NCBI GenBank assembly: GCA_035482415.1
Contig: DATHQT010000057.1
Span: 105,944 to 169,943, forward strand
DNA from: Acidobacteriaceae bacterium
GTDB lineage: Bacteria; Acidobacteriota; Terriglobia; Terriglobales; Acidobacteriaceae
Length of the DNA: 64,000 nucleotides
Direction: 5' to 3'
The position numbers and the translations under genes were made by a program. The stretch's first letter is position 1. Each line of letters begins with the position of its first letter. This document shows positions 1,231 through 34,996 of the stretch, in pieces. Below the pieces are notes generated by a model that was given only the letters and a program-made list of their open reading frames with translations, did no database searches and was not told the origin of the DNA.

Positions 1231-2082
1231 ATGAACCGAAGATTGACGGCTATTCTATTGACCGCTTTTGTCGTTGCGATTGCGTGCAGCTATCTTGTAT
1301 TTCGGATTGTCGGGAATCGCCTCGGCGCATCGAATCATCAGGTGACGCGCGTAGTTGCTGCGGCGAGGGACATCAAGCTCGGCAGCCTTCTAACCAGTGC
1401 CGATCTGACCACGATTGAGATTGCAGGCACACTTCCGGATGGCGCCATCGTCAAGCCATCGGATGCGATCGGCCGAGGTGTTCTCTCCGAGCTGTTCTTA
1501 GGCGAACCCATTCTGAACGGCCGACTCGCCACGCCAGGGTCCGGCGGAGGTCTCGCCGCAACGATTCCAGATGGAATGCGTGCGTGTGCGGTAAAAGTCG
1601 ATGACGTGGTCGGCGTAGCTGGATTCGTTACGCCGGGCATGCGGGTCGACGTGCTGATCTCGGGCAATCCGCCCGGGACGAGCAATACTGCGCAGGGATC
1701 TCAGGTGCGCACCCTGCTGCAGAACATACAGGTTCTGTCTGCCGGCACGGACATTCAGAAAAACGGAGAAGGGAAGCCGCAACAGGTCCAGGTGGTGAAC
1801 CTGCTGGTGACGCCACAGCAGGCAGAGGCTTTGAGCCTGGCGAGCAACCAGACAAAGATTCAGCTCGTCCTGCGGAACCCGCTGGACACCAAGGTTGCGG
1901 AGACACCAGGAACAGGCCTGGCGCGCCTGTATGGCGAGGCGAATGTACCAGTAGGGACGCCGCGGCCGGCAACGATGAATCGCAAGCCCGCCACCGCAGC
2001 GCCTCGCTTGTACCTGATCGAAGTCTTCAACGGATCGAAGCGCAGTGAAGCAAAATTTGCATCCCGCGAGGAAAACCAGTGA
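1231..2082 (+). CDS. cpaB: Flp pilus assembly protein CpaB/RcpC
   Basis: N-terminal TM anchor (LTAILLTAFVVAIACSYLVF) followed by a SAF-like segment (VVAAARDIKLGSLLTSADL). It sits directly upstream of, and overlaps by 4 nt, a Tad-type secretin gene. Confidence 0.85.
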   Translation: MNRRLTAILLTAFVVAIACSYLVFRIVGNRLGASNHQVTRVVAAARDIKLGSLLTSADLTTIEIAGTLPDGAIVKPSDAIGRGVLSELFLGEPILNGRLATPGSGGGLAATIPDGMRACAVKVDDVVGVAGFVTPGMRVDVLISGNPPGTSNTAQGSQVRTLLQNIQVLSAGTDIQKNGEGKPQQVQVVNLLVTPQQAEALSLASNQTKIQLVLRNPLDTKVAETPGTGLARLYGEANVPVGTPRPATMNRKPATAAPRLYLIEVFNGSKRSEAKFASREENQ

Positions 2083-3629
2083 ACGTTAAAACCGGAGTTG
2101 CAGTTCTGTGTTTCTATGCCATTTCTTGTGTGTCCACTCGGGGGACGGAACTTCTTGCAGAGAATGCAGATCCTTTCCAGCAGCAGCAGCAGCAGCCAGC
2201 GGAAGTCACCAGTCAAGACTCGGCCAATGATCTCGTCGTAACCGTGGGACAGTCCGTACTGGTCGATACCACGCAGCCGATTGTTCGGGTGGCGCTGGGG
2301 ATGGAGGGAATCGCCGAGGCCACCGCAACGAGTCCGACCGAAGTGATGGTGAACGGAAAGATGCCCGGCGTCACGAGCCTGATCATCTGGGAAGCTCGGG
2401 GAGGCCGTCAGTTTTTCAAGGTCAGGGTGCGCGCGAGTACATCGGTAGAGAACGATGAGGTGGCGGGCATTCAGCGGCAACTCCGGCTCGAGCTTCCGGG
2501 ACAATCCCTGAAACTCAGCGCCGAGGGCGGAACGATCTTCCTGCGTGGCACGGTGAAGGACTTGAATAGTTCACAGCGCGCCATGCAGATCGCGTCCACC
2601 GGGGGCAAAGTCGTCAACTTGTTATATGTAGACGTCCCGCCACCGCAACCGCAGATTCTTTTGAAGGTGGTCTTTGCCAGCGTCGACATGAGCAAAGTGA
2701 GACAGCTTGGCCTGAACATTTTCAGTGTGGGAGCGGCGAATACCATTGGCACCGTGACCACCGGGCAATTTCAGTCGCCCACGGTCTCCACTCCGGCCAC
2801 AGGGCCCGCCGTAGCGGCGATAGGAAGTGCGTTGAACATCGCATTGTTCCGCAGAGACCTGGGTTTGGGAGTCACCATCCAGGCCCTGGAGAATGCGGGA
2901 GTGATTCAGGTCCTTTCCGAACCCAACCTGCTGGCTGCGGACGGCAAGCAGGCCAGCTTTCTTGCGGGCGGAGAATATCCCTATCCAGTCGTGCAGGGAG
3001 TCACGGGAGGCGGCACAGGCGCGGTCACCATTCAGTTTCAGCAATTCGGCGTGCGCCTGAACTTCATTCCTACGATCACCTCTCGCAATACCATCCGTCT
3101 CCAGGTCGCGCCGGAGGTCAGTTCGCTGGACTTCGCCAACGGCGTGCAAATCTCTGGATTCACCGTGCCTTCCCTGGACGTTCGCAGGATGAACACCGAG
3201 GTCGAAATGGAACAAGGGGAGAGCTTCGCACTCGGCGGTCTGCTCGACAATCGCGAAACCCAGAATTTAGAGAAGATTCCGTTCCTCGGGGACATCCCCA
3301 TTCTCGGCAAACTCTTTCGGTCGATCTCGAAGACGACCACCAGCACGGAGCTGATCGTGATTGTGACGCCGGAGATTGTGGCTCCGATCCCCGTTGGTGT
3401 TCCTTTGCCGAAACTGCATTATCCTGAGCCGTTCCTGCCAGAGAATTCGAAGATCCCCATGACCACTCCGGGTGCGGATGTGACCGGTGCGAAACCGCTG
3501 CCGTCTTCACCGCAGGATATTCCCATCGAGACGATGATGGACAGCCTGAAGCCGGAGAAGCCATTAGTGATCACCACCGGGGCTGGAGTCTCGAGCGGTG
3601 GCGGCGGCACCGCAGGTTCGCCGCAGTGA
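2079..3629 (+). CDS. cpaC: Tad/Flp pilus secretin CpaC/RcpA (type II/III secretin family)
   Basis: Signal peptide, then a secretin C-domain: LSEPNLLAADGKQASFLAGGEYPYP, ESFALGGLLDNRETQNLEKIPFLGDIPILGKLFRS, TELIVIVTPEIV. The GTG start overlaps the cpaB stop (GTGA). Confidence 0.9.
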   Translation: MNVKTGVAVLCFYAISCVSTRGTELLAENADPFQQQQQQPAEVTSQDSANDLVVTVGQSVLVDTTQPIVRVALGMEGIAEATATSPTEVMVNGKMPGVTSLIIWEARGGRQFFKVRVRASTSVENDEVAGIQRQLRLELPGQSLKLSAEGGTIFLRGTVKDLNSSQRAMQIASTGGKVVNLLYVDVPPPQPQILLKVVFASVDMSKVRQLGLNIFSVGAANTIGTVTTGQFQSPTVSTPATGPAVAAIGSALNIALFRRDLGLGVTIQALENAGVIQVLSEPNLLAADGKQASFLAGGEYPYPVVQGVTGGGTGAVTIQFQQFGVRLNFIPTITSRNTIRLQVAPEVSSLDFANGVQISGFTVPSLDVRRMNTEVEMEQGESFALGGLLDNRETQNLEKIPFLGDIPILGKLFRSISKTTTSTELIVIVTPEIVAPIPVGVPLPKLHYPEPFLPENSKIPMTTPGADVTGAKPLPSSPQDIPIETMMDSLKPEKPLVITTGAGVSSGGGGTAGSPQ

Positions 3630-3752: not shown

Positions 3753-4841
3753 ATGTCGAATTGCCGTCGTTTCGTAGCGTTTCCGCCCATCTGCATGCTG
3801 CTCTTTCTTGCTGGATGTGGCAACCCGGCGGGGCTCGACTCCGTGAGTGTGACACCGGCAACTCAGTCGGCGGCGGTTGGTCAGACTACGCAATTTACGG
3901 CAATTGGGACCTATGGCAATGCGAGCCACTCCTCGACCCAGGACGTAACGAGCACCGTGACGTGGACCTCCAGCACTCCTGCGGTGGCGACTGTGAGCGC
4001 TTCCGGCGCCGCAACTGCCGTGAGTGCGGGCTCGACTGTCATCACCGCCAACGCAATGGGTTATAACGGTCCGATCAGCTCCAGTGCAACCCTCACCGTT
4101 ACAGGATCGGCCGGTGGCGCAGGTGGAGGGAGCGGGGGAAGCATTCTTTCGCTCACCATTATTCCGAGTGGGATTGACTTCGGCAGTTTGGGCGAAAGTG
4201 GGCAATTCCTGGCCATCGGAACGTTTTCGACTGCGCCGACCGTGAGGGACCTGACCAACTCGGTCACCTGGCATTCGTCCGAACCCAATAGCTTCCCTGT
4301 GAACAACAACACAGTGGTCGGGGGGCAGGGGACAGAAAACGGTGGAGTCGTCAGCGCGTTTGGTTCCAGCAACGGCGCCACTGGCGCTACCATCACGGCC
4401 GAGGCAGCCGACAGCAATGGATCGATTGCCACCGCTACAGCGACGGTTGGTTGCCCGCTGGTTCTCCCCAACCCGCCAACTACTCCCGGTTCCTGCTATC
4501 AGTCTCCACCGTACCCGCTGCCCCTGCTGGTCACCCTGAATGTCTATAACGAGGGTTTGAATACCACGGATTGGGAAGTAACCGCTGACTCCGCGACGCA
4601 TACGCCGAACGTGCTTCATTGCGGTCCAGGCTGGGTCTTGAATAACCCGGGGGGAGCCTCTGTCTGCGCCGCGACCTATCCTTATGGATCCACCGTGACG
4701 TTGACAGCCCCTGCCAACGGAGCTGCTTTCGGGGGATGGTCAACCAATTGCACGAACACTGGGACTATCACTGCAACCGGGCCGAACACGTGCACGGTCA
4801 TCATGACGTCCGACGATACTGTGGGAGCTATCTTCAACTAA
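3753..4841 (+). CDS. Lipoprotein with bacterial Ig-like (Big_2) domains
   Basis: Lipobox LFLAGC. Big_2-like repeat: VSVTPATQSAAVGQTTQFTAIGTYGN...VTWTSSTPAVATVSASGAATAVSAGSTVITA. A second similar module follows (LTIIPSGIDFGSLGESGQFLAIGTF...VTWHSSEP). Confidence 0.7.
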   Translation: MSNCRRFVAFPPICMLLFLAGCGNPAGLDSVSVTPATQSAAVGQTTQFTAIGTYGNASHSSTQDVTSTVTWTSSTPAVATVSASGAATAVSAGSTVITANAMGYNGPISSSATLTVTGSAGGAGGGSGGSILSLTIIPSGIDFGSLGESGQFLAIGTFSTAPTVRDLTNSVTWHSSEPNSFPVNNNTVVGGQGTENGGVVSAFGSSNGATGATITAEAADSNGSIATATATVGCPLVLPNPPTTPGSCYQSPPYPLPLLVTLNVYNEGLNTTDWEVTADSATHTPNVLHCGPGWVLNNPGGASVCAATYPYGSTVTLTAPANGAAFGGWSTNCTNTGTITATGPNTCTVIMTSDDTVGAIFN

Positions 4842-4850
4842 GGGTCAGGG

Positions 4851-5273
4851 ATGAGTGTGACAAGTCAGGTGCGCGACTTCTTTATGCCGCGCCGGCGTGG
4901 AGAGCCGGATGTTCTCTGGAAGATTGTGAACCTCACGCGGCAGACGACCCTCGCTGACCGCGTGGAAGTCGCGGACACCGGTGCCAGGCGCAATAAAGGT
5001 CTCTTGGGCCGCAGTGGCCTGGAGCCGGGAGAAGGTCTATGGATCACTCCCTGTGAAGCCGTGCATACCTTCTTCATGCGGTTCTCCATCGACCTTGTCT
5101 ATGTCGACCGCGACAAGCAAGTTAAAAAAGTGCGCAGCCATGTAACACCGTGGCGGATGTCCGCATGTCTCTCCGCACACTCTGTTGTCGAGCTCGCTTC
5201 GGGTACCGTTTGCGGCACGCAGACTAGACCAGGGGATCGGCTCGAATTCTCCCGCCTCGGCTCGTGTAGCTAA
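4851..5273 (+). CDS. DUF192 (COG1430) family protein
   Basis: Pattern ADTGARRNKGLLGRSGLEPGEGLWITPCEAVHTFFMRFSIDLVYVD matches the DUF192 core (R..GL.GR...G(L/M).I.PC..(I/V)HT.(F/G)MRF.ID). Confidence 0.65.
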   Translation: MSVTSQVRDFFMPRRRGEPDVLWKIVNLTRQTTLADRVEVADTGARRNKGLLGRSGLEPGEGLWITPCEAVHTFFMRFSIDLVYVDRDKQVKKVRSHVTPWRMSACLSAHSVVELASGTVCGTQTRPGDRLEFSRLGSCS

Positions 5274-5554: not shown

Positions 5555-5617
5555 ATAGCTAAGGCAGGGCCAGCGCTAGCTGGAAGATGAATTAAATCAA
5601 ACGGAGGAACAAATCAA

Positions 5618-5821
5618 ATGAAGGATCTATTTTACAAAGTGTCAGGCAAGATGGAGCTGCTCAAGGCTGTGTTGCAGAACGAACAGGGCCAGGACCTGAT
5701 CGAGTATGCGCTGTTGGTTGCGTTTGTGGCCTTCGCCGCTACCGTCGGAATGCATTCACTGGCCGTATCCATCAACGGTGCATTTACCACCATCGGCACC
5801 GACCTGACTGGTTCTATCTAA
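5618..5821 (+). CDS. flp: Flp/Fap family type IVb pilin, copy 1
   Basis: 67 aa. Contains the prepilin motif G/QDLIEYALLVAFVAFAA (Flp G-XXXXEY signature) followed by a hydrophobic helix. GGAGG lies 10 nt upstream. Confidence 0.9.
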   Translation: MKDLFYKVSGKMELLKAVLQNEQGQDLIEYALLVAFVAFAATVGMHSLAVSINGAFTTIGTDLTGSI

Positions 5822-6066
5822 GCGAGGTCAGTGCCGCAAGACAACCCTGACGCCCTTTGGAAGGCGCTTGAGCTCGAAGCTGGTGTGCTCTGGCGCTCTT
5901 CTCTTTAGGAGTCCGCGGTCACGCGCGGTGTAAACCTTCGCAGAGTTTCGTTATTACGCGCGCGATCGCATCGTTAGGGCCAGGAAAAGCTCTATCTGTA
6001 CCTTGAAGTCCAGCGGGCTACCGCCATGGCTGGAACTTATCTTGATGAAAGGGAGGAATACGTCGC

Positions 6067-6270
6067 ATGAACGATCTACTTTTCAAATTGTCTTTCAAGA
6101 TGTATCTGCTCAAGGATGCGCTACAGAACGAAGAGGGCCAGGATCTAATCGAGTACGCGCTGTTGGTTGCGTTTGTCGCCTTCGCGGCTACCGCGGGGAT
6201 GACTGCGCTGGCCACAAGCATCAACGGCGCTTTTACCACCATCGGCACCGACCTGACCGGGGCCATCTAG
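6067..6270 (+). CDS. flp: Flp/Fap family type IVb pilin, copy 2 (tandem paralog)
   Basis: 67 aa and near-identical to copy 1 (NEEGQDLIEYALLVAFVAFAATAGM...INGAFTTIGTDLTGAI). GGGAGGA RBS at 6051-6057. Confidence 0.9.
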   Translation: MNDLLFKLSFKMYLLKDALQNEEGQDLIEYALLVAFVAFAATAGMTALATSINGAFTTIGTDLTGAI

Positions 6271-6380
6271 GTGAGGTCTGTGCAACAACATAACGCTGTC
6301 GTCATGGAAGAGCTGCCGGGACAAAACCAGGTCACCGGCGTGCTCTCCCTTGTACTTCAATAAAGTTTGGGGATCCATCG

Positions 6381-7442
6381 ATGCTCCTTTCCATTGTTAT
6401 TCCGGTTTTGAACGAGGTCCAGACGATACCACTGTTGCTGGAGCGTCTCCGTGACACACTCCGCGCCGTGGTGTGGGAGGTCATCTTCGTGGACGATGGC
6501 AGCACGGACGCAACGCCGAGCGTGCTGGCATACGAGGCCCTGAGAGATGACCGGGTCAAGGTGATCCGGTTCACCCGGAACTTCGGCCATCAGGCTGCAG
6601 TCACGGCCGGATTGGATTTTGCGAACGGAGACGCAGTGGTGGTGATGGATGCGGATCTCCAGGACCCTCCAGAGCTGTTGCCACGCATGCTGGACTTGTT
6701 TGAGCTGGGCTACGACATCGTGTCTCCCCAGCGCAGCTCCCGCGAGGGAGAGACCGCGTTCAAGCGTTGCACAGCGAAGATCTTCTATCGCGCTCTGTCG
6801 CGTGTTGCCGACCAGCCGATGACGCCGGACGTTGGAGATTTTCGCCTCTACAGCCACAGGGCTGTTCTGGCCATCCGCTCGTTGCGAGAGCAACACCGGT
6901 ATATGCGCGGCATGGTTGCATGGCTCGGGTTGAAAGAAGCGATGCTTCCGTTTGAGCGGAAAGCACGGGCTGCCGGTGAGACCCACTACCCATTGCTCAA
7001 GATGCTGCGATTCGCCTGGACCGGTGTCACCTCTTTCTCGGCGTTTCCCCTGCGCATCAGCATTGCGGCTGGCTGTGTACTCAGTGTTGCCGGTTTTCTC
7101 TATTTCCTGCGCGTGACGTATCTGGCCTTCTACACCACAACACTTGTGCCTGGATGGGCCTCGGTCGTCGCGCTGCAATGCATCTTCTCCGGGATGATCC
7201 TGTTGGCGCTTGGCGCCATTGGCGATTATGTCGCTAGAAACTATGAAGAAGCGAAAGAACGTCCGCTGTATGTTGTGACCGAAGTACGGAACGTCCTGGT
7301 AACAGGAAAAGCACAGCCGCGTGCCGTCATCCTGGCCGATGCTGCGCTTCCGTCAGGCCCGTTCGTTGTGGATACAGAGCGCGTCGCTCCCGCATCCACT
7401 ATGACACCCTCGTATCAACCGCTCGCTGGCGTGCGCGCATAG
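6381..7442 (+). CDS. GT2 polyprenyl-phosphate glycosyltransferase (GtrB/ArnC/DPM1-like)
   Basis: LSIVIPVLNE...VIFVDDGSTDAT...VVMDADLQDPPELL, plus two C-terminal TM helices (FPLRISIAAGCVLSVAGFLYF; ASVVALQCIFSGMILLALGAIG). This is the typical architecture of the GtrB/ArnC group. Confidence 0.85.
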   Translation: MLLSIVIPVLNEVQTIPLLLERLRDTLRAVVWEVIFVDDGSTDATPSVLAYEALRDDRVKVIRFTRNFGHQAAVTAGLDFANGDAVVVMDADLQDPPELLPRMLDLFELGYDIVSPQRSSREGETAFKRCTAKIFYRALSRVADQPMTPDVGDFRLYSHRAVLAIRSLREQHRYMRGMVAWLGLKEAMLPFERKARAAGETHYPLLKMLRFAWTGVTSFSAFPLRISIAAGCVLSVAGFLYFLRVTYLAFYTTTLVPGWASVVALQCIFSGMILLALGAIGDYVARNYEEAKERPLYVVTEVRNVLVTGKAQPRAVILADAALPSGPFVVDTERVAPASTMTPSYQPLAGVRA

Positions 7443-7475
7443 CGGATTCGTTGCACGTCATCAGGATGGAAGCCT

Positions 7476-9107
7476 TTGGAACTGACAGTTGAAGCGGCGC
7501 CGGAGAGGCCTTGCGAAGACAGCGACGCAAGCGCGGTGGCCCCTACGCCTAGATGCACGACGGCTCACCCATCGTCGGCATCGCAAGTCGCGCGCTACTT
7601 AATCTTTACTCTCTGTGCCGCCATCTATCTGCTGCCGTTCATGCGCCTTGTGTTTGTTGGCGACGAGGGAACGCTTATCGTTGGCGCAGTGAGGATATTG
7701 CACGGTGAGGTCTTTGCCCGTGACTTCTTTGAGGTGATTGGACCGGGCACCTTTTACTCGCTTGCTGCAATGTTCAAGCTGTTTGGCGCAACCTTTTTCG
7801 TGGTTCGCATGTGGCTTTTCTTAACTTCCCTCGGGACGCTTCTAGCGATGTATTTTCTGTCGCGGAGGGTGTCCGCTCGATACCAGACTCTTCCTGCGAT
7901 CCTATTGGTCGGTGTTTACTTCAGCACGTTGTGGCCTATGGTGAATCACCATGTGGACAGCAATTGTTTTGCGCTGTGGTCGGTCGTTTGTATGGTCCTG
8001 TGGCAGGATCTGCGCAAGACGGTTCTGTTGTTCGCGGCCGGCGCTCTGGCTGGAGTGACAACCTGCATCCTGCAGCCTAAGGGGCTCCTCCTGCTGCTGG
8101 CGTTTTGCGTATGGCTTTGGGTGCAGCAGCGACGAACGTCAGCGTTGCCGCGATCGATAGCCCTGGTCGTCGGTGGTTCCTTGTGCGTGGTGGGATGTAC
8201 CATGCTCTACTTCTGGAGCCAGGGTGCCCTGTGGGATCTGATCTACATGAACTTCGTGTGGCCCAACCATAACTACGGTTCGTTGAATGCCATACCGTAT
8301 GGGCGAGGTATCTTCCTGTTTTGGAACCATTGGGCTTTTCCGATCCACGGAGTCCGATGGCTCATCCCACTGGCGATCATCCTGACATTTCCATTCGTTC
8401 TGGTGGCCGCGCTTCCTGCACTCGTTCCCATCCTCGGCATTGCCCACGGCAAAGGAAATCTGCGGCCTGTGATTCTGTTGTACTGGCTTTGCGCGTGGGC
8501 ATTCTGGTTATCCGAGATTCACCGACGCGATCTAGCTCATCTCATATCGGGATCGCCCTTGCTGCTTATTTTGTGCGCTTACTTTTTACTTGAATATCGA
8601 GGAAAGGTTGCAACGTTGCTCTTACAGCTTCTTGCGATTAGTGCGGTTGGGTTGGCTACCGTCAACCTGTTCATGGTGCTCTCCGCGAAGGGTACGCCCA
8701 CCAGGGCTGGCACGGTGACGATGTTCGAGCCAAATGCGGCGATTGCTTTTATCGATAGTCATATAGCGCGCGGGACAGAGATATTCGTGTATCCATACGG
8801 CCCCATGTATTATTTCCTAACCGCCACCACGAATCCCACGCGCTACAGTCTTCTGCTCTATAACTACAACACTCCCTCCCAGTTTCAAGACGCCATTCAA
8901 GTCCTCGATCAGCACAGGGTAAGGTATGTGTTGTGGGATACAACCTTCGAGAGGAAGGCTGCCCCTTATTTCTCTTCTGAGATGGACCATCCTGCTGGCG
9001 GGTTGCGGATGGAGCCCTATCTTGAATCACACTATAAGGTCGTGCAGGATTTCGATGGCGTGCGGATCATGGAACGCAAAGAGGACGATCGTGCCGCCAA
9101 GCGCTAA
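7476..9107 (+). CDS. Polytopic GT-C fold glycosyltransferase (ArnT/PMT, GT39/GT83-like)
   Basis: About 11-13 predicted TM helices. An Asp-Glu pair sits in the first loop (VFVGDEGTLIVGAVRIL). A C-terminal soluble domain of about 120 aa follows. Positioned directly after a GtrB-like GT2. TTG start as in the ORF track. The family call rests on architecture only. Confidence 0.6.
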   Translation: MELTVEAAPERPCEDSDASAVAPTPRCTTAHPSSASQVARYLIFTLCAAIYLLPFMRLVFVGDEGTLIVGAVRILHGEVFARDFFEVIGPGTFYSLAAMFKLFGATFFVVRMWLFLTSLGTLLAMYFLSRRVSARYQTLPAILLVGVYFSTLWPMVNHHVDSNCFALWSVVCMVLWQDLRKTVLLFAAGALAGVTTCILQPKGLLLLLAFCVWLWVQQRRTSALPRSIALVVGGSLCVVGCTMLYFWSQGALWDLIYMNFVWPNHNYGSLNAIPYGRGIFLFWNHWAFPIHGVRWLIPLAIILTFPFVLVAALPALVPILGIAHGKGNLRPVILLYWLCAWAFWLSEIHRRDLAHLISGSPLLLILCAYFLLEYRGKVATLLLQLLAISAVGLATVNLFMVLSAKGTPTRAGTVTMFEPNAAIAFIDSHIARGTEIFVYPYGPMYYFLTATTNPTRYSLLLYNYNTPSQFQDAIQVLDQHRVRYVLWDTTFERKAAPYFSSEMDHPAGGLRMEPYLESHYKVVQDFDGVRIMERKEDDRAAKR

Positions 9108-9241: not shown

Positions 9242-9751
9242 CTAGGTTTTTGGCCATTGATTGAACATCTTTGTGACGGCCTTCTGCACCAGCTGCTGAT
9301 TCTTGCCACCGTTGTTGCTGAGGGAGTTCTGGCCGATTCCACGCCAGACCAGGCTCTGGGTTTTTGCGTCGTAAAGATCGACGATCAACGTTCCCTCAAC
9401 ATTTTGCTGCGGGGTAATCGTGCCCATGCCTCCGCCGAATCCCCGCATACCCATTGCGGTGTAAGAGGTTTGCTGCTGCATTCCGCCATTGGCGGTAACG
9501 ATCAGGTCTGGATTCTGATTTTCCGCGACCTTCTGCAGCCCTTTTCCTTGCAGCGCCGCGTCGACATTTTGCACTGCCACCTGTGCCAGAATTGAATTCT
9601 TGATTTGGTTAGCGTTATTGGATCCCCATGCGTAGGTGTGATACGCGGCAAAACTCTGACTGTGGTTGTAATTGACCGAGACCGTTTGGCCAACCGCAAA
9701 CGTGGCCGTCATGCAAAGCAAAATTGCGCACCATACAGATTTGATCTTCAT
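9242..9751 (-). CDS. Secreted DUF4136-like protein
   Basis: Signal peptide MKIKSVWCAILLCMTATFAVGQ. Motifs YHTYAWGS and GTLIVDLYDAKTQSLVWRG are typical of DUF4136. GAGGAGG RBS. Confidence 0.6.
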   Translation of the reverse strand: MKIKSVWCAILLCMTATFAVGQTVSVNYNHSQSFAAYHTYAWGSNNANQIKNSILAQVAVQNVDAALQGKGLQKVAENQNPDLIVTANGGMQQQTSYTAMGMRGFGGGMGTITPQQNVEGTLIVDLYDAKTQSLVWRGIGQNSLSNNGGKNQQLVQKAVTKMFNQWPKT

Positions 9752-28132: not shown

Positions 28133-29260
28133 TTAAGATATACGCCTGATCGCTAGTTTCAGGGCGTCGCATACGGCTGCGATCTGTGAATCGTTAATCC
28201 GATTGAAGAAGGGAAGCGCAATGGTGCGCGAGGCGATCGACTCGGTAACGTGAAGGTCCGCGGCAGTCAGAAGGTCGGCGTAGGCCGGCTGCAAATGAAT
28301 GGGTGCGAAGTATCGAGCGCAGCCGATGCCGGCCTGCTCAAGCTCCTTGATCACCTGGTCTCGGTGCGCGGCAGTAAACGCATCTGCAAGACGGACCACA
28401 TAGACGAACCAGCTGATACGGCGGCCAGGGATCTCGTCGATCGGAAGAGTGAGGCGAGTCTCTGCGCATAGCTGCCGGTGATAGATGCGCGCGATTTCCT
28501 CGCGCCGGTCGAGAATAGCGGCCAGGCGCCGCATCTGCCCAATTCCGAGCGTGCACGCGATCTCGGACAGCCGATAGTTGTACCCAATCTCTGTGTGTTG
28601 CACCCAGCTGTCAGTCGGCGCGCGCCCCTGGTTGCGCAAGCTCCGCATCCGCGCAGCAAGATCGGGATCGCGCGTCACGATCATGCCGCCCTCGCCGGTC
28701 GTGATCTGCTTGTTGGGATAGAAGGCGAAGACGGCAACGTTGCCGAAGGAGCCAATCGGCTGCGAGTCAATGGTCGCGCCGAGAGCTTCACAAGCATCCT
28801 CAATCAAGGCAAGCTTATGGTGCTGCGCGAGCGCCACCAGCGCGGGCATATCGGCAGGAACGCCGAACGTATGTACGACGACGATGGCCCGCGTGCGCGA
28901 GTTGACTGCCCGCTCGACCGCGGCCGGCGACAGGTTAAGCGTGATGCAGTCAATGTCAGCAAACACAGGAGTCGCGCCAACATAACGAATCGCGTTGGCT
29001 GCGGCGATGAAGGTGAACGAGGGAACGATGACCTCGTCGCCCGCGCCGATCCCGAGCGCCAGCATCGCGAGGTGCAGCCCTGCGGTGCCCGAGCTTACCG
29101 CAACTGCGTGCGCGACCCCCGTCAGATGCGTGAACGTCGCCTCGAACTCTGTCAGACGCGCCCCCAGGCTGAGTTGTGGGGAGCGCAGTGTCGCAGCCAC
29201 GGCTTCAATTTCAGCTTCGGTAACATCGGGCGATGAGAGAGGAATCTTCGGCGAAGTCAT
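28133..29260 (-). CDS. DegT/DnrJ/EryC1/StrS-family sugar aminotransferase (PLP-dependent)
   Basis: MTSPKIPLSSPDVTEAEIEAV..., VPSFTFIAAANAIRYVGATPVFADID, NKQITTGEGGMIVT. ATG 29260 forms an ATGA overlap with the stop of the upstream epimerase. The track ORF's 114-aa N-terminal extension overlaps that gene and is rejected. Confidence 0.85.
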   Translation of the reverse strand: MTSPKIPLSSPDVTEAEIEAVAATLRSPQLSLGARLTEFEATFTHLTGVAHAVAVSSGTAGLHLAMLALGIGAGDEVIVPSFTFIAAANAIRYVGATPVFADIDCITLNLSPAAVERAVNSRTRAIVVVHTFGVPADMPALVALAQHHKLALIEDACEALGATIDSQPIGSFGNVAVFAFYPNKQITTGEGGMIVTRDPDLAARMRSLRNQGRAPTDSWVQHTEIGYNYRLSEIACTLGIGQMRRLAAILDRREEIARIYHRQLCAETRLTLPIDEIPGRRISWFVYVVRLADAFTAAHRDQVIKELEQAGIGCARYFAPIHLQPAYADLLTAADLHVTESIASRTIALPFFNRINDSQIAAVCDALKLAIRRIS

Positions 29261-30429
29261 TTGGCTGACAGAAGCTCCGCGGGAAGTGACTGGGCGCGCT
29301 TGTGCAGCAAACTCTCGAGCGGTGTCGAGGTCAGCACACCCACGATTCGCTCCGCAGCGTGACCATCGCCGTAGATGTTCTTCATGGATCGAAGGCTCTC
29401 GCGGAAAGCAGGCCGTCGGGACCGGGCAACCTGCACGAGGATGGAGCCGACCGAAGCCGCAGCATCCAGAACGTTGGGACCACGCTCGCGACCTTGCTGC
29501 CGCATTCCTACGTTCACCACCGGCAGCGCAAAGGACGCAGCCTCCATGATGCCGCTGCTGGAGTTGCCCAGCAGCACACTTGCCTCGCGCAGAAGGCTCC
29601 AATAGGTAATCGAAGCAAGGTTGATAAACAAATGCGCGTCAGGATGTACATTGCAAAACGCTCGAATGCGAGCCATCAGCTCGTGGCTCCCGGCGTCGGC
29701 ATTGGGATAGCAAAAGATGATCTGCCCGGAAAGACCTTCGATTGCTGCGAAGACCGCATTCGCTTCGGCCGTTGTGTCCTTGAAGAGGGTAACGGGGTGA
29801 TACGCAACGACGATAACATCCTCCGCCAGCGAAACCTCAAGCGCCCTCTCAAGTTCAGCGCGCGTGAGCAGGGTGCTGCGGCGGATGTGGTCCAGCGAGG
29901 GCGCGCCGGCGCGATGCACACGCCACGGCTCTTCTCCCATGGAGATCACCCGGGCCCGCGCAATATCGGTCGAGGTGAAATGAAGGTGAGCCATCTTGGT
30001 GAGTGCGTTGCGGACAGCATCGTCGATAGCGCCCTCGCTGATCTCGCCCCCTTCGATATGCGCGACGGGGATCCGCAAGGTAAGTGCGACGCTGGCCGGT
30101 GCAAGCATCTCGTAGCGATCCGCGATCAGCAGCAACAGGTCCGGGCGCATGTGGGCGAGCGCGTCCGTGAGGCCGAGAACCGCAAGCCCAAGCGTCTTGG
30201 CCATACCGACGTCGCTGTCCGAACTGAGCAGGCATTCAATTCGCGACGCGATCGGAAAGCCGTCCCGCTCGATCTCGCTGACCGTGGCGCCGAACTCGGG
30301 CGAAAGATGCGCTGCGAGCACGATCAACTTGAGGTCAACTTCAGGATGCGCTTGGAGATCCCTTAGCACCCAATAGAGATGGCTGTAATCGGCGCGCGAG
30401 GACGTGACGACCGCGATGGTGCGTTTCAT
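29257..30429 (-). CDS. UDP-N-acetylglucosamine 2-epimerase, hydrolysing type (NeuC/LegG-like)
   Basis: KRTIAVVTSSRADYSHLYWVLRDL and VAHIEGGEISEGAIDDAVRNALTKMAHLHF match the NeuC-type signatures. ATGA overlap with the upstream dehydratase stop at 30426-30429. Confidence 0.8.
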   Translation of the reverse strand: MKRTIAVVTSSRADYSHLYWVLRDLQAHPEVDLKLIVLAAHLSPEFGATVSEIERDGFPIASRIECLLSSDSDVGMAKTLGLAVLGLTDALAHMRPDLLLLIADRYEMLAPASVALTLRIPVAHIEGGEISEGAIDDAVRNALTKMAHLHFTSTDIARARVISMGEEPWRVHRAGAPSLDHIRRSTLLTRAELERALEVSLAEDVIVVAYHPVTLFKDTTAEANAVFAAIEGLSGQIIFCYPNADAGSHELMARIRAFCNVHPDAHLFINLASITYWSLLREASVLLGNSSSGIMEAASFALPVVNVGMRQQGRERGPNVLDAAASVGSILVQVARSRRPAFRESLRSMKNIYGDGHAAERIVGVLTSTPLESLLHKRAQSLPAELLSAK

Positions 30430-31625
30430 GCGCGCATCTCCGTTGCCAGCCTCAGCGCAGAGTCTTCCTTGCGCGCGGCCAGGATCAGGCTACTGGGTTG
30501 GTACTCGGGCACAAGGAACTGAATCGCGCGTAGCAGTTCCTGCAAGTCGCGCCCACGGGCAGCATCGCGGAGCGTGTCCAGTGCATCGCTCATCTCCGCC
30601 GCAGCAGGTATCGGGGTGTGGATGGTCCGCAGACCCGAGCCACCGAGCTCATCTTGCGAACGCAGCGACTCGGGGCTCGAAACAAGCTGTTCGGAAAGCT
30701 TGTCGCCAGGGCGCAACCCGGTGAATTCGATGGACGCCAGGCTTTGGTGGTGCGCAATTAGATATCGCGCCAAGTCGAGGATGCGGACCGCAGGACCGAC
30801 GCTGGGGAGAATGAGCGCCTTGTCGGATTCCACATCCAGCGCGGCGAATAGTACTCGGACAGCTTCGTCCAACGTGATGAAGTAGCGCTGCGCCTCGGGG
30901 TGGGTTACGCTGACCGGGCCGCCCAAGGCAATCTGCTCAAGAAACAATGGAAGCACGCTGCCCTGCGAACCCATCACGTTGCACAGGCGCGCCACCTTCA
31001 TGCGTGTGGAACCCGGCAGGCTGAGAAGAAGGAGCTCTGCGATGCGTTTGGACGCGCCCATGATACTGCGCGGTTCAACCGCCTTGTCCGTGGAGACGAG
31101 AACAATCTGTTCTACCTCGTGTGCGATCGCAGAATGCGCCAGGGCATACGTGCCGAACACGTTCTGTTCAATGGCCGCAAACGGATTTTGTTCCATCAAT
31201 GGAACGTGCTTCAGAGCTGCTGCGTGGAAGATGATCTCGGGTCGATGCTCCGTCAAGGCACGATCGAGCGTATCGGAATTGCAGACGTCGCCGAGAAGGG
31301 AAACATGTTCTCTCGAACCAGCCTCATGCAGACTGCGATCGACCTGGTAGAGCCCATTCTCCGAGCTGTCGAGGAGCACCAGGCTGGCAGGCAGGGACGC
31401 CGCCGCTGCATGCGACAAGGCCGATCCGATGGACCCTCCCGCTCCCGTAATCAGAACGCGTCTTCCTGTCAGGGACCGCGATCCGAGCAGCCGCCAACTC
31501 GCCGGAGAGCTCGGTGCGATCAGCCGGTCCCAGAACACGGCACCGTGACCCTGGGGCCCGGCAATGCGAAGATCCGTTGAAGCCGCCGTTTGCATGTGTC
31601 TACAGTCTAGAGAATTTCTCCGCAT
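30426..31625 (-). CDS. Soluble CapD/PglF/PseB-like NAD-dependent nucleotide-sugar 4,6-dehydratase
   Basis: Rossmann motif GRRVLITGAGGSIGSAL. FHAAALKHVPLME is typical of the CapD/FlaA1 group. No TM domain. The start could also be the internal ATG (MQTAAS...). Confidence 0.8.
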   Translation of the reverse strand: MRRNSLDCRHMQTAASTDLRIAGPQGHGAVFWDRLIAPSSPASWRLLGSRSLTGRRVLITGAGGSIGSALSHAAAASLPASLVLLDSSENGLYQVDRSLHEAGSREHVSLLGDVCNSDTLDRALTEHRPEIIFHAAALKHVPLMEQNPFAAIEQNVFGTYALAHSAIAHEVEQIVLVSTDKAVEPRSIMGASKRIAELLLLSLPGSTRMKVARLCNVMGSQGSVLPLFLEQIALGGPVSVTHPEAQRYFITLDEAVRVLFAALDVESDKALILPSVGPAVRILDLARYLIAHHQSLASIEFTGLRPGDKLSEQLVSSPESLRSQDELGGSGLRTIHTPIPAAAEMSDALDTLRDAARGRDLQELLRAIQFLVPEYQPSSLILAARKEDSALRLATEMRA

Positions 31626-31805: not shown

Positions 31806-33284
31806 ATGGACGTCGTCGGGAAGATCGCATGTGCAGGTTTGGGTATAGCCCTGTGCTTTGGGTGTGAGGCGGCTGCCTTCACGCAGCGTGCCACGCAGCC
31901 CGGCATTTCCGTCGCCGCGAAGAGGTTGCAGGGTCCCACAGACATCGCCTTCATTCAGACGCTCGAATTCAGACCGGGCAATCCCGCGCAGCGCTTTCCG
32001 CTTGGCAGCCGGCTCGTGCGCTTGCGCCTCGGGGCCGATGGCACGGCATCCTCCATTGCCACCCCCCTGACGCTACAGTTCTTTGCCGCTGCTGATCCCC
32101 AGGTCTCTTTCGACGGCAGCGAGCTGCTCTTCGCCGGCCAAGCCCAGCGCGGCGCCACGTGGCAGATATGGGCGATGCCGGTGGACGGCGGGGCTTCACG
32201 GCAGATCACTCATTGCGCCGGAGATTGTGTCCAGCCCGCGTACCTGCCGGGTGGCGAGATCGCTTACACGTCGCTGCGAGGCGCGGAACCTGCCCGTGCG
32301 TCGGAGGTGCAAGTCTGCCGCAACGACGGATCTGATGTGCATCCGATTACGTTTGGGCCCGGCAGGTACGAAATCGAGGCCGTTTTGCGCAGCGGCCGAC
32401 TGCTGCTGTCTGCCGAGTCGCCGCTGGGGGACAGCCGTGAGGCAGAACCGCTGCGAACACTGTATCTGGTCGACCCGGATGGGTCAGGGTTGATGCGGCT
32501 GCGACAAGACGATCGTGCGCGGGCTACTCATAGCAGCGCTGTCGAGCTGGCGGACGGGACCATCCTCTTCATGCAGCGGAATGCGACGAGCACTTCGGAA
32601 GGGCGCCTCGCCTGGATCCGTCCCGGAGCCTTGAACGCCACGGCCATCGAGCACACGCATTCGGAATATGCGTCGGCGACCGCGCTCGACGATGAGACGC
32701 TGCTGGTATCGCGGCGCGCCCCGGGACTTCGCTTCGATCTGTATCAACTCTCTCTAAACAGTGGCGGCCGCGAGCAGTTGCTCTACCGGGATGCGCACGC
32801 GTCGAGCGTTCAGGCCGTTCATATTGTTCCCCATCCCGCAGCGCTCGCTTACCGCAGCATTTTGCATCCGGATCGTACATCCGGACGCATCATTTGTCTC
32901 GACGCCTATGCTTCCAAAGATTTTGCTAACGGTCGCTTGCCCGGGCCGATCGTGCGCGTGCGAGCTCTCATGAAGACGCAGAGCGGCGAGAAGATTCTGG
33001 GAGAAGCCCCGGTCGAACGCGACGGATCGTTTTACGCGACAGTGCCCGCGGATCTGCCGATACGCCTGCAGTTGATTGGCGCAGAGGGTGAAGTTCTGAA
33101 GCAGCAGCGCAGCTGGATGTGGGTGCGTAATGGGGAAGATCGCGGATGCGTTGGGTGCCATGAGAGCCAGGCGCTGACGCCAGAGAATCGTTCGCCAATG
33201 ACCTTGCAGCGCCTCGATACACCGACGCCGCTCATGGGTGAACGGGTCTCTAACCCAGGCACGCAGAAGGGAGCGCGACCTTGA
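31806..33284 (+). CDS. Exported PD40/TolB-like beta-propeller protein with a C-terminal single CxxCH haem-c motif (HzsA-middle-domain-like candidate)
   Basis: Hydrophobic N-terminus IACAGLGIALCFGC. PD40-like blades (GSELLFAGQAQRGATWQIWAMPVDGGASRQIT; LYLVDPDGSGLMRL). The C-terminus reads WMWVRNGEDRGCVGCHE, with CVGCH at nt 33147-33161. Confidence 0.55.
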   Translation: MDVVGKIACAGLGIALCFGCEAAAFTQRATQPGISVAAKRLQGPTDIAFIQTLEFRPGNPAQRFPLGSRLVRLRLGADGTASSIATPLTLQFFAAADPQVSFDGSELLFAGQAQRGATWQIWAMPVDGGASRQITHCAGDCVQPAYLPGGEIAYTSLRGAEPARASEVQVCRNDGSDVHPITFGPGRYEIEAVLRSGRLLLSAESPLGDSREAEPLRTLYLVDPDGSGLMRLRQDDRARATHSSAVELADGTILFMQRNATSTSEGRLAWIRPGALNATAIEHTHSEYASATALDDETLLVSRRAPGLRFDLYQLSLNSGGREQLLYRDAHASSVQAVHIVPHPAALAYRSILHPDRTSGRIICLDAYASKDFANGRLPGPIVRVRALMKTQSGEKILGEAPVERDGSFYATVPADLPIRLQLIGAEGEVLKQQRSWMWVRNGEDRGCVGCHESQALTPENRSPMTLQRLDTPTPLMGERVSNPGTQKGARP

Positions 33285-34996
33285 GAGCTTCACTGAAAAT
33301 TTGCACGGTGTTCATTGCAATCTCATTGCCGGCATTCGCTGGGCGGTCCACTGCGCAGACAGCCGCTGTTGCGGTAGACAAGGTAACCCATGCGATTCCG
33401 CTTCCGCAGTTCGAGGATGTGACGAAGAAGTCCGGGATCGACTTCCAACACTCCTTCGGCGAAAAGACCTTGAGTTCGATCCAGGAGGGAACAGGATCGG
33501 GCTGCGCCTGGATCGACTACAACAACGACGGGTGGATGGATCTCTACATCGTGAACGGACGGCATGTCGATGGGCTCACCGACCACTCTGCACCGGATGG
33601 GATGGACGCGACCAACCACCTCTATCGCAACAATGGCGACGGCACCTTCACCGACGTAACGGTGCAGGCGGGTGTTCCGGGCAATGGCTTCGGTGTCGGC
33701 ATCACGGCGGGAGACTTCGACAACGATGGCAACGAGGACCTCTACGTCACCAATTACAACTCGGCGATCTTGTATCACAACAACGGAAATGGGGCCTTTA
33801 CGGACATTACTGCGAAGGCCGGCGTGACCAACCTGAACTTCGGAACGGGCGCCGCCTTCCTCGATTATGACCGCGACGGACGCCTTGATCTCTTCGTCGG
33901 CAACTACCTGAAGTACGATCCCAGCAACCGGCAGTTTTATTCAGCGCAGCAATACCCGGGGCCGCTCGAATACGCGCCGGAGACCAATCGGCTCTTCCAT
34001 AACAACGGCGACGGAACATTCACCGATGTCTCCACGGCATCCGGCATCAGCGCTCAGCCCGGGCGTGCCATGGGCGTCACGGTCGGAGACTTTGACGGCG
34101 ATGGATGGCCCGACGTCTACGTTGCGAATGACACCATGGCAAGCTTCCTCTATCACAACAATCGCAACGGTACGTTCACCGATGTCGCCGCCGAAATGGG
34201 CGCGGCCTACGGACAGAACGGCGAGGCTTCCACCGCGATGGGTCCCGTCTTCGGGGACTATGAGAACAAGGGACGCCAGGGGTTATTCGTCTCCGATGCC
34301 CACTTTCACCGGCTGCTGCGCAACAGCGGCAAGCCGGGCGAGCCGTTCGAAGATGTGACCAACGAATCAGGGGTCGGAGCGGTCTCAGGACAGTTTGTTG
34401 GCTGGGGCGATGGCCTCTTCGACTTCGATAACGATGGATGGAAGGACCTGTTCATCGTGAATGGCGGCCTGGTGTGGCTCATCCCCCAACAGAGTTCGCT
34501 GCTGCGCAACAACGGCGACGGGACATTCGCGGACATCTCCCTGCAGGCGGGAAGCTTCTTCTCAACCCAGATTGTCAGCCGCGGTGCCTGCTTTGCTGAC
34601 TACGACAATGATGGATATGTCGACGCGTTTGTCGTAACACTGGGCGGCAAGGGAATTCTGCTGCACAACACGCCGCCGGCAGTGAAGCGCAATCATTGGC
34701 TGACGATCAAGCTGGTGGGGACGCGCAGTAATCGCGACGGCTATGGAGCCAGCCTCGAGGCAATTGCCGGAGACCTGCACCAATGGGTGCAGTCCACGTC
34801 GGCCAGCGGATACCTCTCGCAGAATGATCCGCGTCCACACTTCGGCCTGGGTCAGCATGAGGTCGTGGATACCCTGACAATTCATTGGCCCAGCGGAACC
34901 GTCCAGACCCTGCACGATATCCGGGCGGACCAGGTACTCAAGATCACCGAGCCCGCCGCAAGCGGCGTTACCCCTACAAAGGGGAAGACGCCATGA
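33281..34996 (+). CDS. CRTAC1-like protein (FG-GAP/VCBS repeats + ASPIC/UnbV)
   Basis: Signal peptide ICTVFIAISLPAFAGRSTAQ. Repeats: IDYNNDGWMDLYIVNG, GDFDNDGNEDLYVTN, LDYDRDGRLDLFVGN, GDFDGDGWPDVYVAN, FDFDNDGWKDLFIVNG, ADYDNDGYVDAFV. ASPIC/UnbV segment: NHWLTIKLVGTRSNRDGYGASLE...SGYLSQNDPRPHFGLG. The TTG start overlaps the upstream stop (TTGA). Confidence 0.8.
   Translation: MRASLKICTVFIAISLPAFAGRSTAQTAAVAVDKVTHAIPLPQFEDVTKKSGIDFQHSFGEKTLSSIQEGTGSGCAWIDYNNDGWMDLYIVNGRHVDGLTDHSAPDGMDATNHLYRNNGDGTFTDVTVQAGVPGNGFGVGITAGDFDNDGNEDLYVTNYNSAILYHNNGNGAFTDITAKAGVTNLNFGTGAAFLDYDRDGRLDLFVGNYLKYDPSNRQFYSAQQYPGPLEYAPETNRLFHNNGDGTFTDVSTASGISAQPGRAMGVTVGDFDGDGWPDVYVANDTMASFLYHNNRNGTFTDVAAEMGAAYGQNGEASTAMGPVFGDYENKGRQGLFVSDAHFHRLLRNSGKPGEPFEDVTNESGVGAVSGQFVGWGDGLFDFDNDGWKDLFIVNGGLVWLIPQQSSLLRNNGDGTFADISLQAGSFFSTQIVSRGACFADYDNDGYVDAFVVTLGGKGILLHNTPPAVKRNHWLTIKLVGTRSNRDGYGASLEAIAGDLHQWVQSTSASGYLSQNDPRPHFGLGQHEVVDTLTIHWPSGTVQTLHDIRADQVLKITEPAASGVTPTKGKTP

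Follow-up and report, generated by a model that had tools for sequence, protein, structure and literature searches.

Glycosyltransferase genes behind the flp pilin genes of Acidobacteriaceae: a candidate module for glycosylation of Tad pili

The window analysed here is a 64,000-nucleotide (nt) stretch of DNA from Acidobacteriaceae bacterium (assembly GCA_035482415.1, contig DATHQT010000057.1, positions 105,944 to 169,943, forward strand), and our subject is a group of four genes at its positions 5618–9107: two flp genes, which encode the pilins of a Tad (Flp) pilus, a GtrB-like GT2 glycosyltransferase gene and a gene for a 543-amino-acid polytopic protein predicted to be a glycosyltransferase of the GT-C fold. 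An earlier note, made from the sequence of this stretch, had read these genes as a possible Flp pilin glycosylation module, and re-reading the DNA returned the same genes at the same coordinates. We judge it moderately probable, from the position of the genes, that the GT2/GT-C pair is a periplasmic O-glycosylation module for the Tad (Flp) pilins. The adjacency and the enzymes of the earlier proposal were borne out, while its choice of substrate is drawn from gene position and its argument from serine and threonine content proved weak (below). The module is one form that a more general, variable cassette takes: in Acidobacteriaceae/Terriglobia the slot behind flp is a hot spot occupied by GT-C-type and GT2 enzymes in interchangeable sets, each of one to several. 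On the wider proposal, that soil Acidobacteriaceae coat their Tad/Flp pili with strain-specific periplasmic O-glycans from an exchangeable post-pilin cassette that draws on at least three unrelated transferase families, we are close to evenly divided and lean slightly towards doubt.

Conservation and variation of the genes behind flp

One genome per species was scanned with a profile of the GT-C protein, which gave 79 loci, almost all from Acidobacteriaceae/Terriglobia, and the six-frame open reading frames (ORFs) of these GT-C-anchored loci were searched with the window proteins. The recurrent gene order is cpaB-cpaC-(Big_2)-DUF192-flp-[GT2]-GT-C, with one to four copies of flp and one, two or more of GT-C; cpaB begins this conserved string and lies upstream of the flp cassette in most of the related loci, the DUF192 gene occupies the cpaC-flp interval in most of them, and the Big_2 gene stands at its window position only in closer relatives. 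A same-strand flp gene is found within 5 kilobases (kb) upstream of the GT-C gene in 62 of the 68 loci that have at least 5 kb of upstream sequence, and flp is downstream of GT-C in one of the 61 loci that have 5 kb on that side. Many loci have the GT-C gene less than 100 nt after flp, and in 20 of 23 GT2/GT-C pairs from relatives the two reading frames touch or overlap. The genes downstream of GT-C in the window recur in none of the relatives examined (the DUF4136 gene that follows GT-C was found in none of the related loci examined), and in Edaphobacter aggregans (locus L017), whose orthologous locus contains tadE/tadG-like genes, the downstream genes are an unrelated SDR gene, a TetR regulator and a hydrolase. 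Since the downstream flank is not conserved, the GT2/GT-C pair forms the 3' end of the tad/flp unit and is not part of a neighbouring cluster.

Six loci keep flp and the glycosyltransferase genes without cpaB/cpaC upstream, and in Acidobacteriaceae bacterium KBS 96 (L065:1-12491) a flp-GT2-GT-C-methyltransferase string is divergent from tadB-cpaF-cpaE and a gene for a 613-amino-acid PMT_2/TMEM260-like GT-C. A sister clade of the GT-C family (35–43% identity) is found in GT2-methyltransferase-GT-C units with no tad genes, and this occurrence outside the tad context argues that the association with flp is specific, a lineage-specific recruitment maintained by selection. The methyltransferase class of KBS 96 also sits between GT2 and GT-C in this non-tad sister clade (L160–L162).

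Because anchoring on the GT-C gene could bias this result, a second sample was anchored on the secretin CpaC in metagenome contigs, and 20 of its loci were informative, each having a flp array with 2.5 kb or more of sequence behind it. Glycosyltransferase genes directly follow the flp array in 19 of these 20 loci, and in 17 they include a polytopic enzyme. Conservation of the flp-GT2/GT-C adjacency in relatives, which the earlier note had set as a check on its reading, was thus strongly upheld in two independent samples. The enzymes themselves vary. Window-type GT-Cs, one to three GT87-like GT-Cs (Pfam GT87), a polytopic family of ~585 amino acids and GT2s all occur, in 16 cassette architectures among 49 fully informative loci, of which the window's flp-GT2-GT-C is the commonest, and loci whose CpaC proteins are 85% identical can hold different cassettes. 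Two or three GT87-like genes stand in tandem directly behind the flp arrays at L100:18253-21556, L125:8835-11906, L130:15678-18640 and L152:4779-7315. Members of the ~585-amino-acid family (L043:8111-9850, L016:837-2609, L087:15245-17002 and about 30 others) sit directly after flp, and the next gene encodes in most cases a small GT2 and at times a window-type GT-C or some other enzyme; they have 8–10 hydrophobic segments and a loop motif, DDFSFLLAADTF...NPT, that is invariant, belong to no Pfam family and had no match in a PDB profile search, and hhalign found no significant relation between them and the window GT-C or GT87-like families. Such exchangeable cassettes are consistent with strain-specific pilus glycans, and the sharing of one slot by three polytopic families with no detected relation points to selection on position rather than to one inherited accident.

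The same observations bear on the simplest alternative, that the adjacency has no functional meaning and that an unrelated GT2/GT-C operon came by chance to lie beside the end of the tad operon. In its favour, the RNA contigs do not bridge the flp2-GT2 junction, and the spacers measure 110–130 nt and carry a hairpin (below). Nonetheless, this explanation is disfavoured and strikes us as very improbable, since the adjacency persists down to ~36–45% GT-C identity while the other flank changes freely, and since the three unrelated-looking polytopic families fill the same post-flp position.

The two glycosyltransferases

The GT2 protein has a cytoplasmic GT-A domain with a DXD-type motif in the form DAD (VVMDADLQDP), as in GtrB-type enzymes, and a C-terminal membrane hairpin of two helices, with hydrophobic segments at ~219 and ~255. 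Its residues 3–302 align with residues 28–329 of the solved Synechocystis GtrB (5EKP, E 2.5e-70), and it aligns less well with ArnC (1e-39) and with dolichol-P-mannose synthase. By family it is a predicted GtrB-type polyprenyl-phosphate sugar synthase, and the identity that the earlier note gave it is thereby confirmed over nearly its full length. Its scores against the NCBIfam equivalog models PgfS (256 bits, cut-off 500) and ArnC (156 bits, cut-off 529) fall so far under the cut-offs that its sugar specificity cannot be named.

The 543-amino-acid protein has at least eight hydrophobic segments. It scored 24.5 bits against Pfam PMT_2, under the threshold of 26.1 bits, and a sequence search of its profile against all PDB chains returned nothing at E <= 1; many of its orthologs carry a precomputed match to PF13231. 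A first AlphaFold2 (AF2) model, from 21 close homologs, was poor (predicted local distance difference test score, pLDDT, 61) and gave GT-C matches at low template modelling (TM) scores only. The final model was built from a 136-sequence alignment that includes the sister clade, which was reached through a distant homolog, and has a pLDDT of 90 and a predicted TM score (pTM) of 0.90. A Foldseek search of this model against the PDB gave ArnT (5F15) as the best match (E 1.9e-7, TM 0.55), followed by STT3, AglB, PglB, DPY19, AftA, AftB and ALG9; every one of the top 24 matches is a GT-C enzyme, and no PMT structure from the PDB is among the top matches. The model has a polytopic transmembrane core (~34–403), a long first periplasmic loop with juxtamembrane helices and a periplasmic C-terminal alpha/beta domain (~405–535), which are the hallmarks of the GT-C fold. 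The predicted structure therefore confirms the GT-C-like assignment of the earlier note, and the comparison with known enzymes that the note had proposed places the protein closest to ArnT.

Residue conservation was assessed in 88 family members, tandem paralogs included. In loop 1, D63 (78%) and E64 (98%) directly follow the first transmembrane segment, R73 and R82 are conserved, D83 is present in 100% and E86 in 99%, and the acidic residues of this loop are conserved even among tandem GT-C paralogs. Other near-invariant polar residues are H158/H159, D161, K202, E347, H349, R350 and D352. This pattern fits what would be expected of active GT-C enzymes, and the abutting GtrB-like gene supports a polyprenyl-phosphate-linked sugar as the putative donor.

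The match to ArnT, and the fact that O-antigen, lipid A and teichoic acids are the classical targets of GtrB and GT-C pairs, bring in a second alternative, in which the cassette modifies not the pilin but a glycolipid or polysaccharide (lipid A, lipopolysaccharide (LPS) core, O-antigen or an adhesive exopolysaccharide) that is co-regulated with the pili. Gene turnover from strain to strain is typical of O-antigen modification too, and the hairpin after flp2 could end the pilin transcript. We consider this unlikely: it leaves unexplained the same-strand position immediately 3' of flp in ~90% of loci, across deep divergence and rearrangement, no arnA/B/D-type or O-antigen genes flank the cassette in the window or in E. 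aggregans, and the GT2 misses the ArnC equivalog cut-off widely (above). ArnT-like lipid A modification, Gtr serotype conversion and chance adjacency were all ranked below Flp glycosylation.

The pilins, the proposed pathway and the spacer

The proteins encoded by flp1 and flp2 are 79% identical. Both score under the Pfam gathering threshold of 32.2 bits for PF04964 (Flp_Fap; E 1e-5 for flp1 and 9e-7 for flp2, Table 1), and these are near misses for proteins this short. The prepilin peptidase motif G/XXXXEY (...NEQG/QDLIEYALLVAFVAFAAT...) and the hydrophobic helix are present, the processing motif is conserved in 194 unique relatives, and cpaB and cpaC directly upstream in the window confirm the tad/cpa setting; motif, size and context leave little doubt that these are Flp pilins. 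Cleavage of Flp1, predicted to occur after G24, would give a 43-residue mature pilin with a calculated unmodified mass of 4400.0 Da, and the corresponding values for Flp2 are 43 residues and 4305.9 Da. The unmodified mature Flp of E. aggregans (L017) was calculated at 4623.3 Da (average mass), and the pilins of Terriglobus albidus (L034) at 4524.2 and 4512.1 Da. The C-termini, FTTIGTDLTGSI and FTTIGTDLTGAI, were read directly from the DNA and are Thr/Ser-rich as the earlier note had said. The use of this richness to argue for Flp as the substrate did not hold up as well: Ser and Thr make up 28% of the tail residues in the 194 relatives, where they form a common stripe (positions 23, 26, 30, 33, 37 and 40/41) on the polar face of an amphipathic helix, and with no invariant site among them the argument is weak. 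We rejected Ser/Thr richness as evidence for glycosylation, since it does not discriminate.

A separate observation concerns the last flp paralog before GT2, which in several relatives has a normal Flp core that continues into a long C-terminal extension rich in Gly and Asn (for example GGGGGNNGNNGNN...GFFGGFF) and looks like an unusual tailed pilin (L007:8107-8673, L009:8299-8751, L010:7040-7474, L011:8232-8669, L012:7772-8119, L031:8313-8579 and L032:9369-9662). The window has no such tailed copy.

If the cassette acts on Flp, a three-step pathway may be proposed. On the cytoplasmic side of the inner membrane, a nucleotide sugar would supply the monosaccharide that the GT2, to judge from its family, attaches to undecaprenyl phosphate. 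The lipid-linked sugar would then be flipped across the membrane, presumably by a flippase other than a GtrA-like neighbour: flp2 and the 110-nt spacer precede GT2, and the window has no small four-helix ORF between the two enzyme genes or next to them. Finally, the GT-C enzyme would transfer the sugar to Ser/Thr hydroxyls in the ~20-residue periplasmic tail of Flp while the pilin is anchored in the inner membrane, before pilus assembly, a step suggested by gene linkage and by topology, with the acidic GT-C loop at the periplasmic membrane surface. So short a tail would let only a membrane-proximal active site reach it, and this is where the active sites of GT-C enzymes lie; in the periplasm, moreover, nucleotide sugars are not known to be available. 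The additional GT-C and GT2 genes of other loci would extend or vary the glycan.

The same chemistry could serve another Tad-associated protein (the minor pilins TadE/F/G, the Big_2 protein, the secretin or CpaB), or could be a general periplasmic O-glycosylation system that is housed in the tad locus. The cassette is always within tad clusters, the GT-C sister clade occurs outside the tad context, and streptococcal GtrB/PgfS and GT-C systems have many membrane-protein substrates (PMC12041528), all of which such a broader role would accommodate. We think it distinctly unlikely, because the cassette trails flp itself, and not other tad genes, in two locus organisations, because the Big_2 gene is missing at its position in most loci that keep the cassette, and because TadE/F/G are several kb distant in E. 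aggregans.

The spacer between flp2 and GT2 (6271–6380) is 110 nt long, as the earlier note had it, and the distance from flp stop to GT2 start in relatives clusters at 110–130 nt. That note saw no convincing terminator here, which is right in that a pattern scan of the spacer found no canonical terminator and incomplete in that a very stable hairpin is present (z = -4.0; none of 200 shuffles was equally stable). No U-run follows the window hairpin, and the hairpins of some relatives carry T-runs. Hairpins with the same outer stem (GGGAGAG/CTCTCCC) and a varying inner stem were found in 11 of 32 flp-GT2 spacers; such a hairpin stands ~30–45 nt ahead of the GT2 start codon in the window and in L001, L003, L006, L015, L017, L019, L047, L068, L074 and L075, and in separate folds of eight spacers the hairpin closed by this stem is the minimum-energy structure in six. 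RNAalifold on the spacer alignment recovered five outer pairs only and no covariation, so the claim of conservation rests on the separate folds; an Rfam scan of the window matched no family. The hairpin looks like a leaky terminator, or like a stabilising or processing element for an abundant pilin mRNA, and is compatible with an operon that makes the enzymes at a much lower level and equally with separate transcripts. Near-identical contigs in three soil metatranscriptomes cover 5580–6001 (flp1 and its 3' spacer) and 8572–8896 (part of GT-C), which suggests in situ activity of both the organism and these genes.

Several points weigh against Flp glycosylation. The assignment of Flp as the substrate is a positional inference. 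The metatranscriptome contigs do not bridge the flp2-GT2 junction, and this, with the hairpin that lies there, makes a separate or strongly attenuated transcript for the enzymes possible. The closest solved structure is the lipid A-modifying ArnT, so that structure by itself would also allow a glycolipid acceptor. A few GT-C homologs are away from flp (L013, L058), rare Acidobacteriaceae copies of this kind being in unrelated contexts, and a few loci have flp with no glycosyltransferase or with GT2 only (L099, L083, L098). No Ser/Thr position of the tail is invariant among the 194 Flp relatives, some tails are hydroxyl-poor and at least one has no hydroxyl residue at all. The tail is helical in assembled Tad pili and PMT-type enzymes usually modify disordered segments; the tail of Caulobacter PilA is likewise Ser/Thr-rich. 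The cryo-electron microscopy (cryo-EM) structure of the Caulobacter Tad pilus shows no glycan density and reports no modification (PMC10710030).

Related systems, neighbouring genes and significance

The closest functional parallel is TfpW of Pseudomonas aeruginosa group IV strains, a GT-C enzyme encoded just after pilA that D-arabinofuranosylates Ser/Thr residues of the pilin (bioRxiv 10.1101/2020.04.19.049825). TfpW is likewise polytopic, its loop 1 and its large C-terminal domain are periplasmic, and it takes a monosaccharide from a polyprenyl-phosphate donor made in the cytoplasm; its gene is immediately downstream of the major pilin gene, as the window family's is of flp in the great majority of its loci. 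The likeness drawn here is one of architecture and gene position. TfpW, however, acts on globular-headed type IVa pilins whereas the window system would act on a 43-residue Flp; the genes for TfpW's donor (DprE1/DprE2, GtrA-like) are of a different type and lie at another site, and no GtrB-like GT2 gene adjoins that of TfpW. TfpO/PilO and PglL are also encoded directly after the pilin gene, and the type IVa pilin glycans vary among strains and affect phage susceptibility (bioRxiv 10.1101/150227), but these are Wzy_C-family enzymes that transfer an oligosaccharide en bloc from undecaprenyl pyrophosphate and are not GT-Cs that use undecaprenyl-phosphate monosaccharides.

Other systems share the pairing of enzymes. 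Streptococcal GtrB/PgfS and the GT-C enzymes PgtC2 and PgfM1 O-glycosylate Ser/Thr-rich extracytoplasmic segments of membrane-associated proteins (PMC12041528). There too a GtrB-type GT2 makes the undecaprenyl-phosphate sugar, and among NCBIfam models it is PgfS that the window GT2 matches best, although under the equivalog cut-off; the streptococcal GT-Cs are YfhO-type, belong to Gram-positive bacteria and modify disordered tails of many proteins, with no linkage to a pilin. Actinobacterial Ppm1/PMT (GT39) systems similarly make a polyprenyl-phosphate mannose from which a GT-C enzyme glycosylates Ser/Thr, and the window GT-C has the weak PMT_2 match and a loop 1 that opens with a D-E pair; no PDB PMT is among its top fold matches, however, no solved GT-C matches it by sequence, and PMT, which has many substrates, is coupled to their translocation by Sec rather than dedicated to the product of one adjacent gene. 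ArnC/ArnT is a GT2 and GT-C pair that includes the closest solved GT-C structure and, in ArnC, the second-best structural relative of the GT2, but the window and E. aggregans have no arnA/B/D/E/F nearby (the neighbours are tad genes, DUF192, DUF4136, SDR and TetR genes), and the genomic partner of the pair is flp and not lipid A genes. The GtrA/GtrB/GtrV systems offer a GtrB homolog followed by a variable, serotype-specific GT-C partner with quick strain turnover; the window pair differs in having no GtrA flippase gene, prophage context or O-antigen genes, and in being part of a cassette fixed behind pilin genes.

The only earlier hint of Flp glycosylation that we found in the literature is an old report, as cited in PMC12307814, which implicates RcpC in glycosylation of Aggregatibacter actinomycetemcomitans Flp1; in that account no transferase is identified, and the tad locus as described there has no GT-C or GT2. 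A 2026 review of type IV pili mentions glycosylation for type IVa pilins only, and our full-text literature searches found no paper describing a dedicated glycosyltransferase for Flp/Tad pilins, in agreement with the earlier note, which knew of no established system of dedicated GT-C glycosylation for these pilins.

The coordinates of the features are collected in Table 1. The Big_2 protein has an N-terminal hydrophobic stretch and a Cys that by eye could be a lipoprotein signal. Two DUF192 paralogs are conserved in such Tad loci (4851–5273 in the window; L017:20-439 and 7770-8297), one in the cpaC-flp interval and the other close to the tadE/tadG-like genes, and at L017:461-1342 E. aggregans encodes a TadE-like pseudopilin domain fused to an N-terminal PilZ (cyclic di-GMP-binding) domain. 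On the minus strand at 28133–31625, 19 kb from GT-C, the window has adjoining genes for a DegT-type aminotransferase, an Epimerase_2 protein (UDP-GlcNAc 2-epimerase family), which we take to be putatively NeuC-like, and a Polysacc_synt_2 4,6-dehydratase. Sets of this kind are typical of the synthesis of bacillosamine or nonulosonic-acid precursors, sugars that are often used for protein glycosylation. At 31806–36969 a protein with the hydrazine-synthase-alpha middle domain adjoins an FG-GAP/ASPIC protein and a fusion of a beta-propeller with a di-haem cytochrome c peroxidase, an unusual combination.

Table 1. Features of the flp-glycosyltransferase locus in the window
Feature	Position	Strand	Basis
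cpaB/rcpC, Tad pilus periplasmic component	1231..2082	+	Pfam RcpC 99 bits + SAF
cpaC/rcpA, Tad secretin	2079..3629	+	Pfam Secretin 156 bits + T2SS-T3SS_pil_N
Big_2 domain protein, variable locus member	3753..4841	+	Pfam Big_2 38 bits
DUF192 protein, between cpaC and flp	4851..5273	+	Pfam DUF192 73 bits
flp1, Flp prepilin, 67 amino acids	5618..5821	+	Flp_Fap 25.6 bits, G/QDLIEY motif
flp2, paralogous Flp prepilin, 67 amino acids	6067..6270	+	Flp_Fap 29.0 bits, G/QDLIEY motif
Stable RNA hairpin, flp2-GT2 spacer	6303..6352	+	-26.1 kcal/mol, z = -4.04
GtrB-like GT2, predicted polyprenyl-phosphate sugar synthase	6381..7442	+	PF00535 (Glycos_transf_2) 121 bits
GT-C fold glycosyltransferase (PMT_2/ArnT-like), 543 amino acids	7476..9107	+	Predicted structure
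Convergent DUF4136 gene, 3' boundary of unit	9242..9751	-	Pfam DUF4136 110 bits

The logic of a pilin gene followed by its modifying enzyme, and that of a polyprenyl-phosphate sugar synthase paired with a GT-C enzyme, are well known from TfpW, Ppm1/PMT, GtrB/GtrV, ArnC/ArnT and the streptococci. What is new here is the class of pilus, a GT-C family with no curated model and a variable glycosyltransferase slot after flp across a bacterial family. Tad/Flp pili are among the most widespread bacterial adhesive filaments, and their pilins of 40–50 residues are usually treated as bare helices; the one high-resolution structure of a bacterial Tad pilus shows no modification. If our reading is correct, Flp pilins would join type IVa and archaeal pilins in having glycosylation enzymes of their own, and this would be the first dedicated glycosylation system for pilins of the Flp type. 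The enzymes would represent new GT-C families whose peptide acceptor is defined and very small, which would make them of interest to enzymologists and for glyco-engineering. Cassette turnover resembles that of Pseudomonas pilin accessory genes and, behind a conserved machinery, suggests an arms race at the pilus surface comparable to the phage-driven diversification of Pseudomonas pilin glycosylation; the selection behind it would come from phages specific for the pilus or from targets of adhesion. The flp-GT2-GT-C order is also present in strains in culture (E. aggregans DSM 19364, L017; Terriglobus albidus DSM 26559, L034; Terriglobus sp. 2YAB30_2, L039; KBS 96, L065), KBS 83 is a further cultured carrier, and the cassette would give a genetic handle on the surface properties of Acidobacteria, dominant yet poorly understood bacteria of soil.

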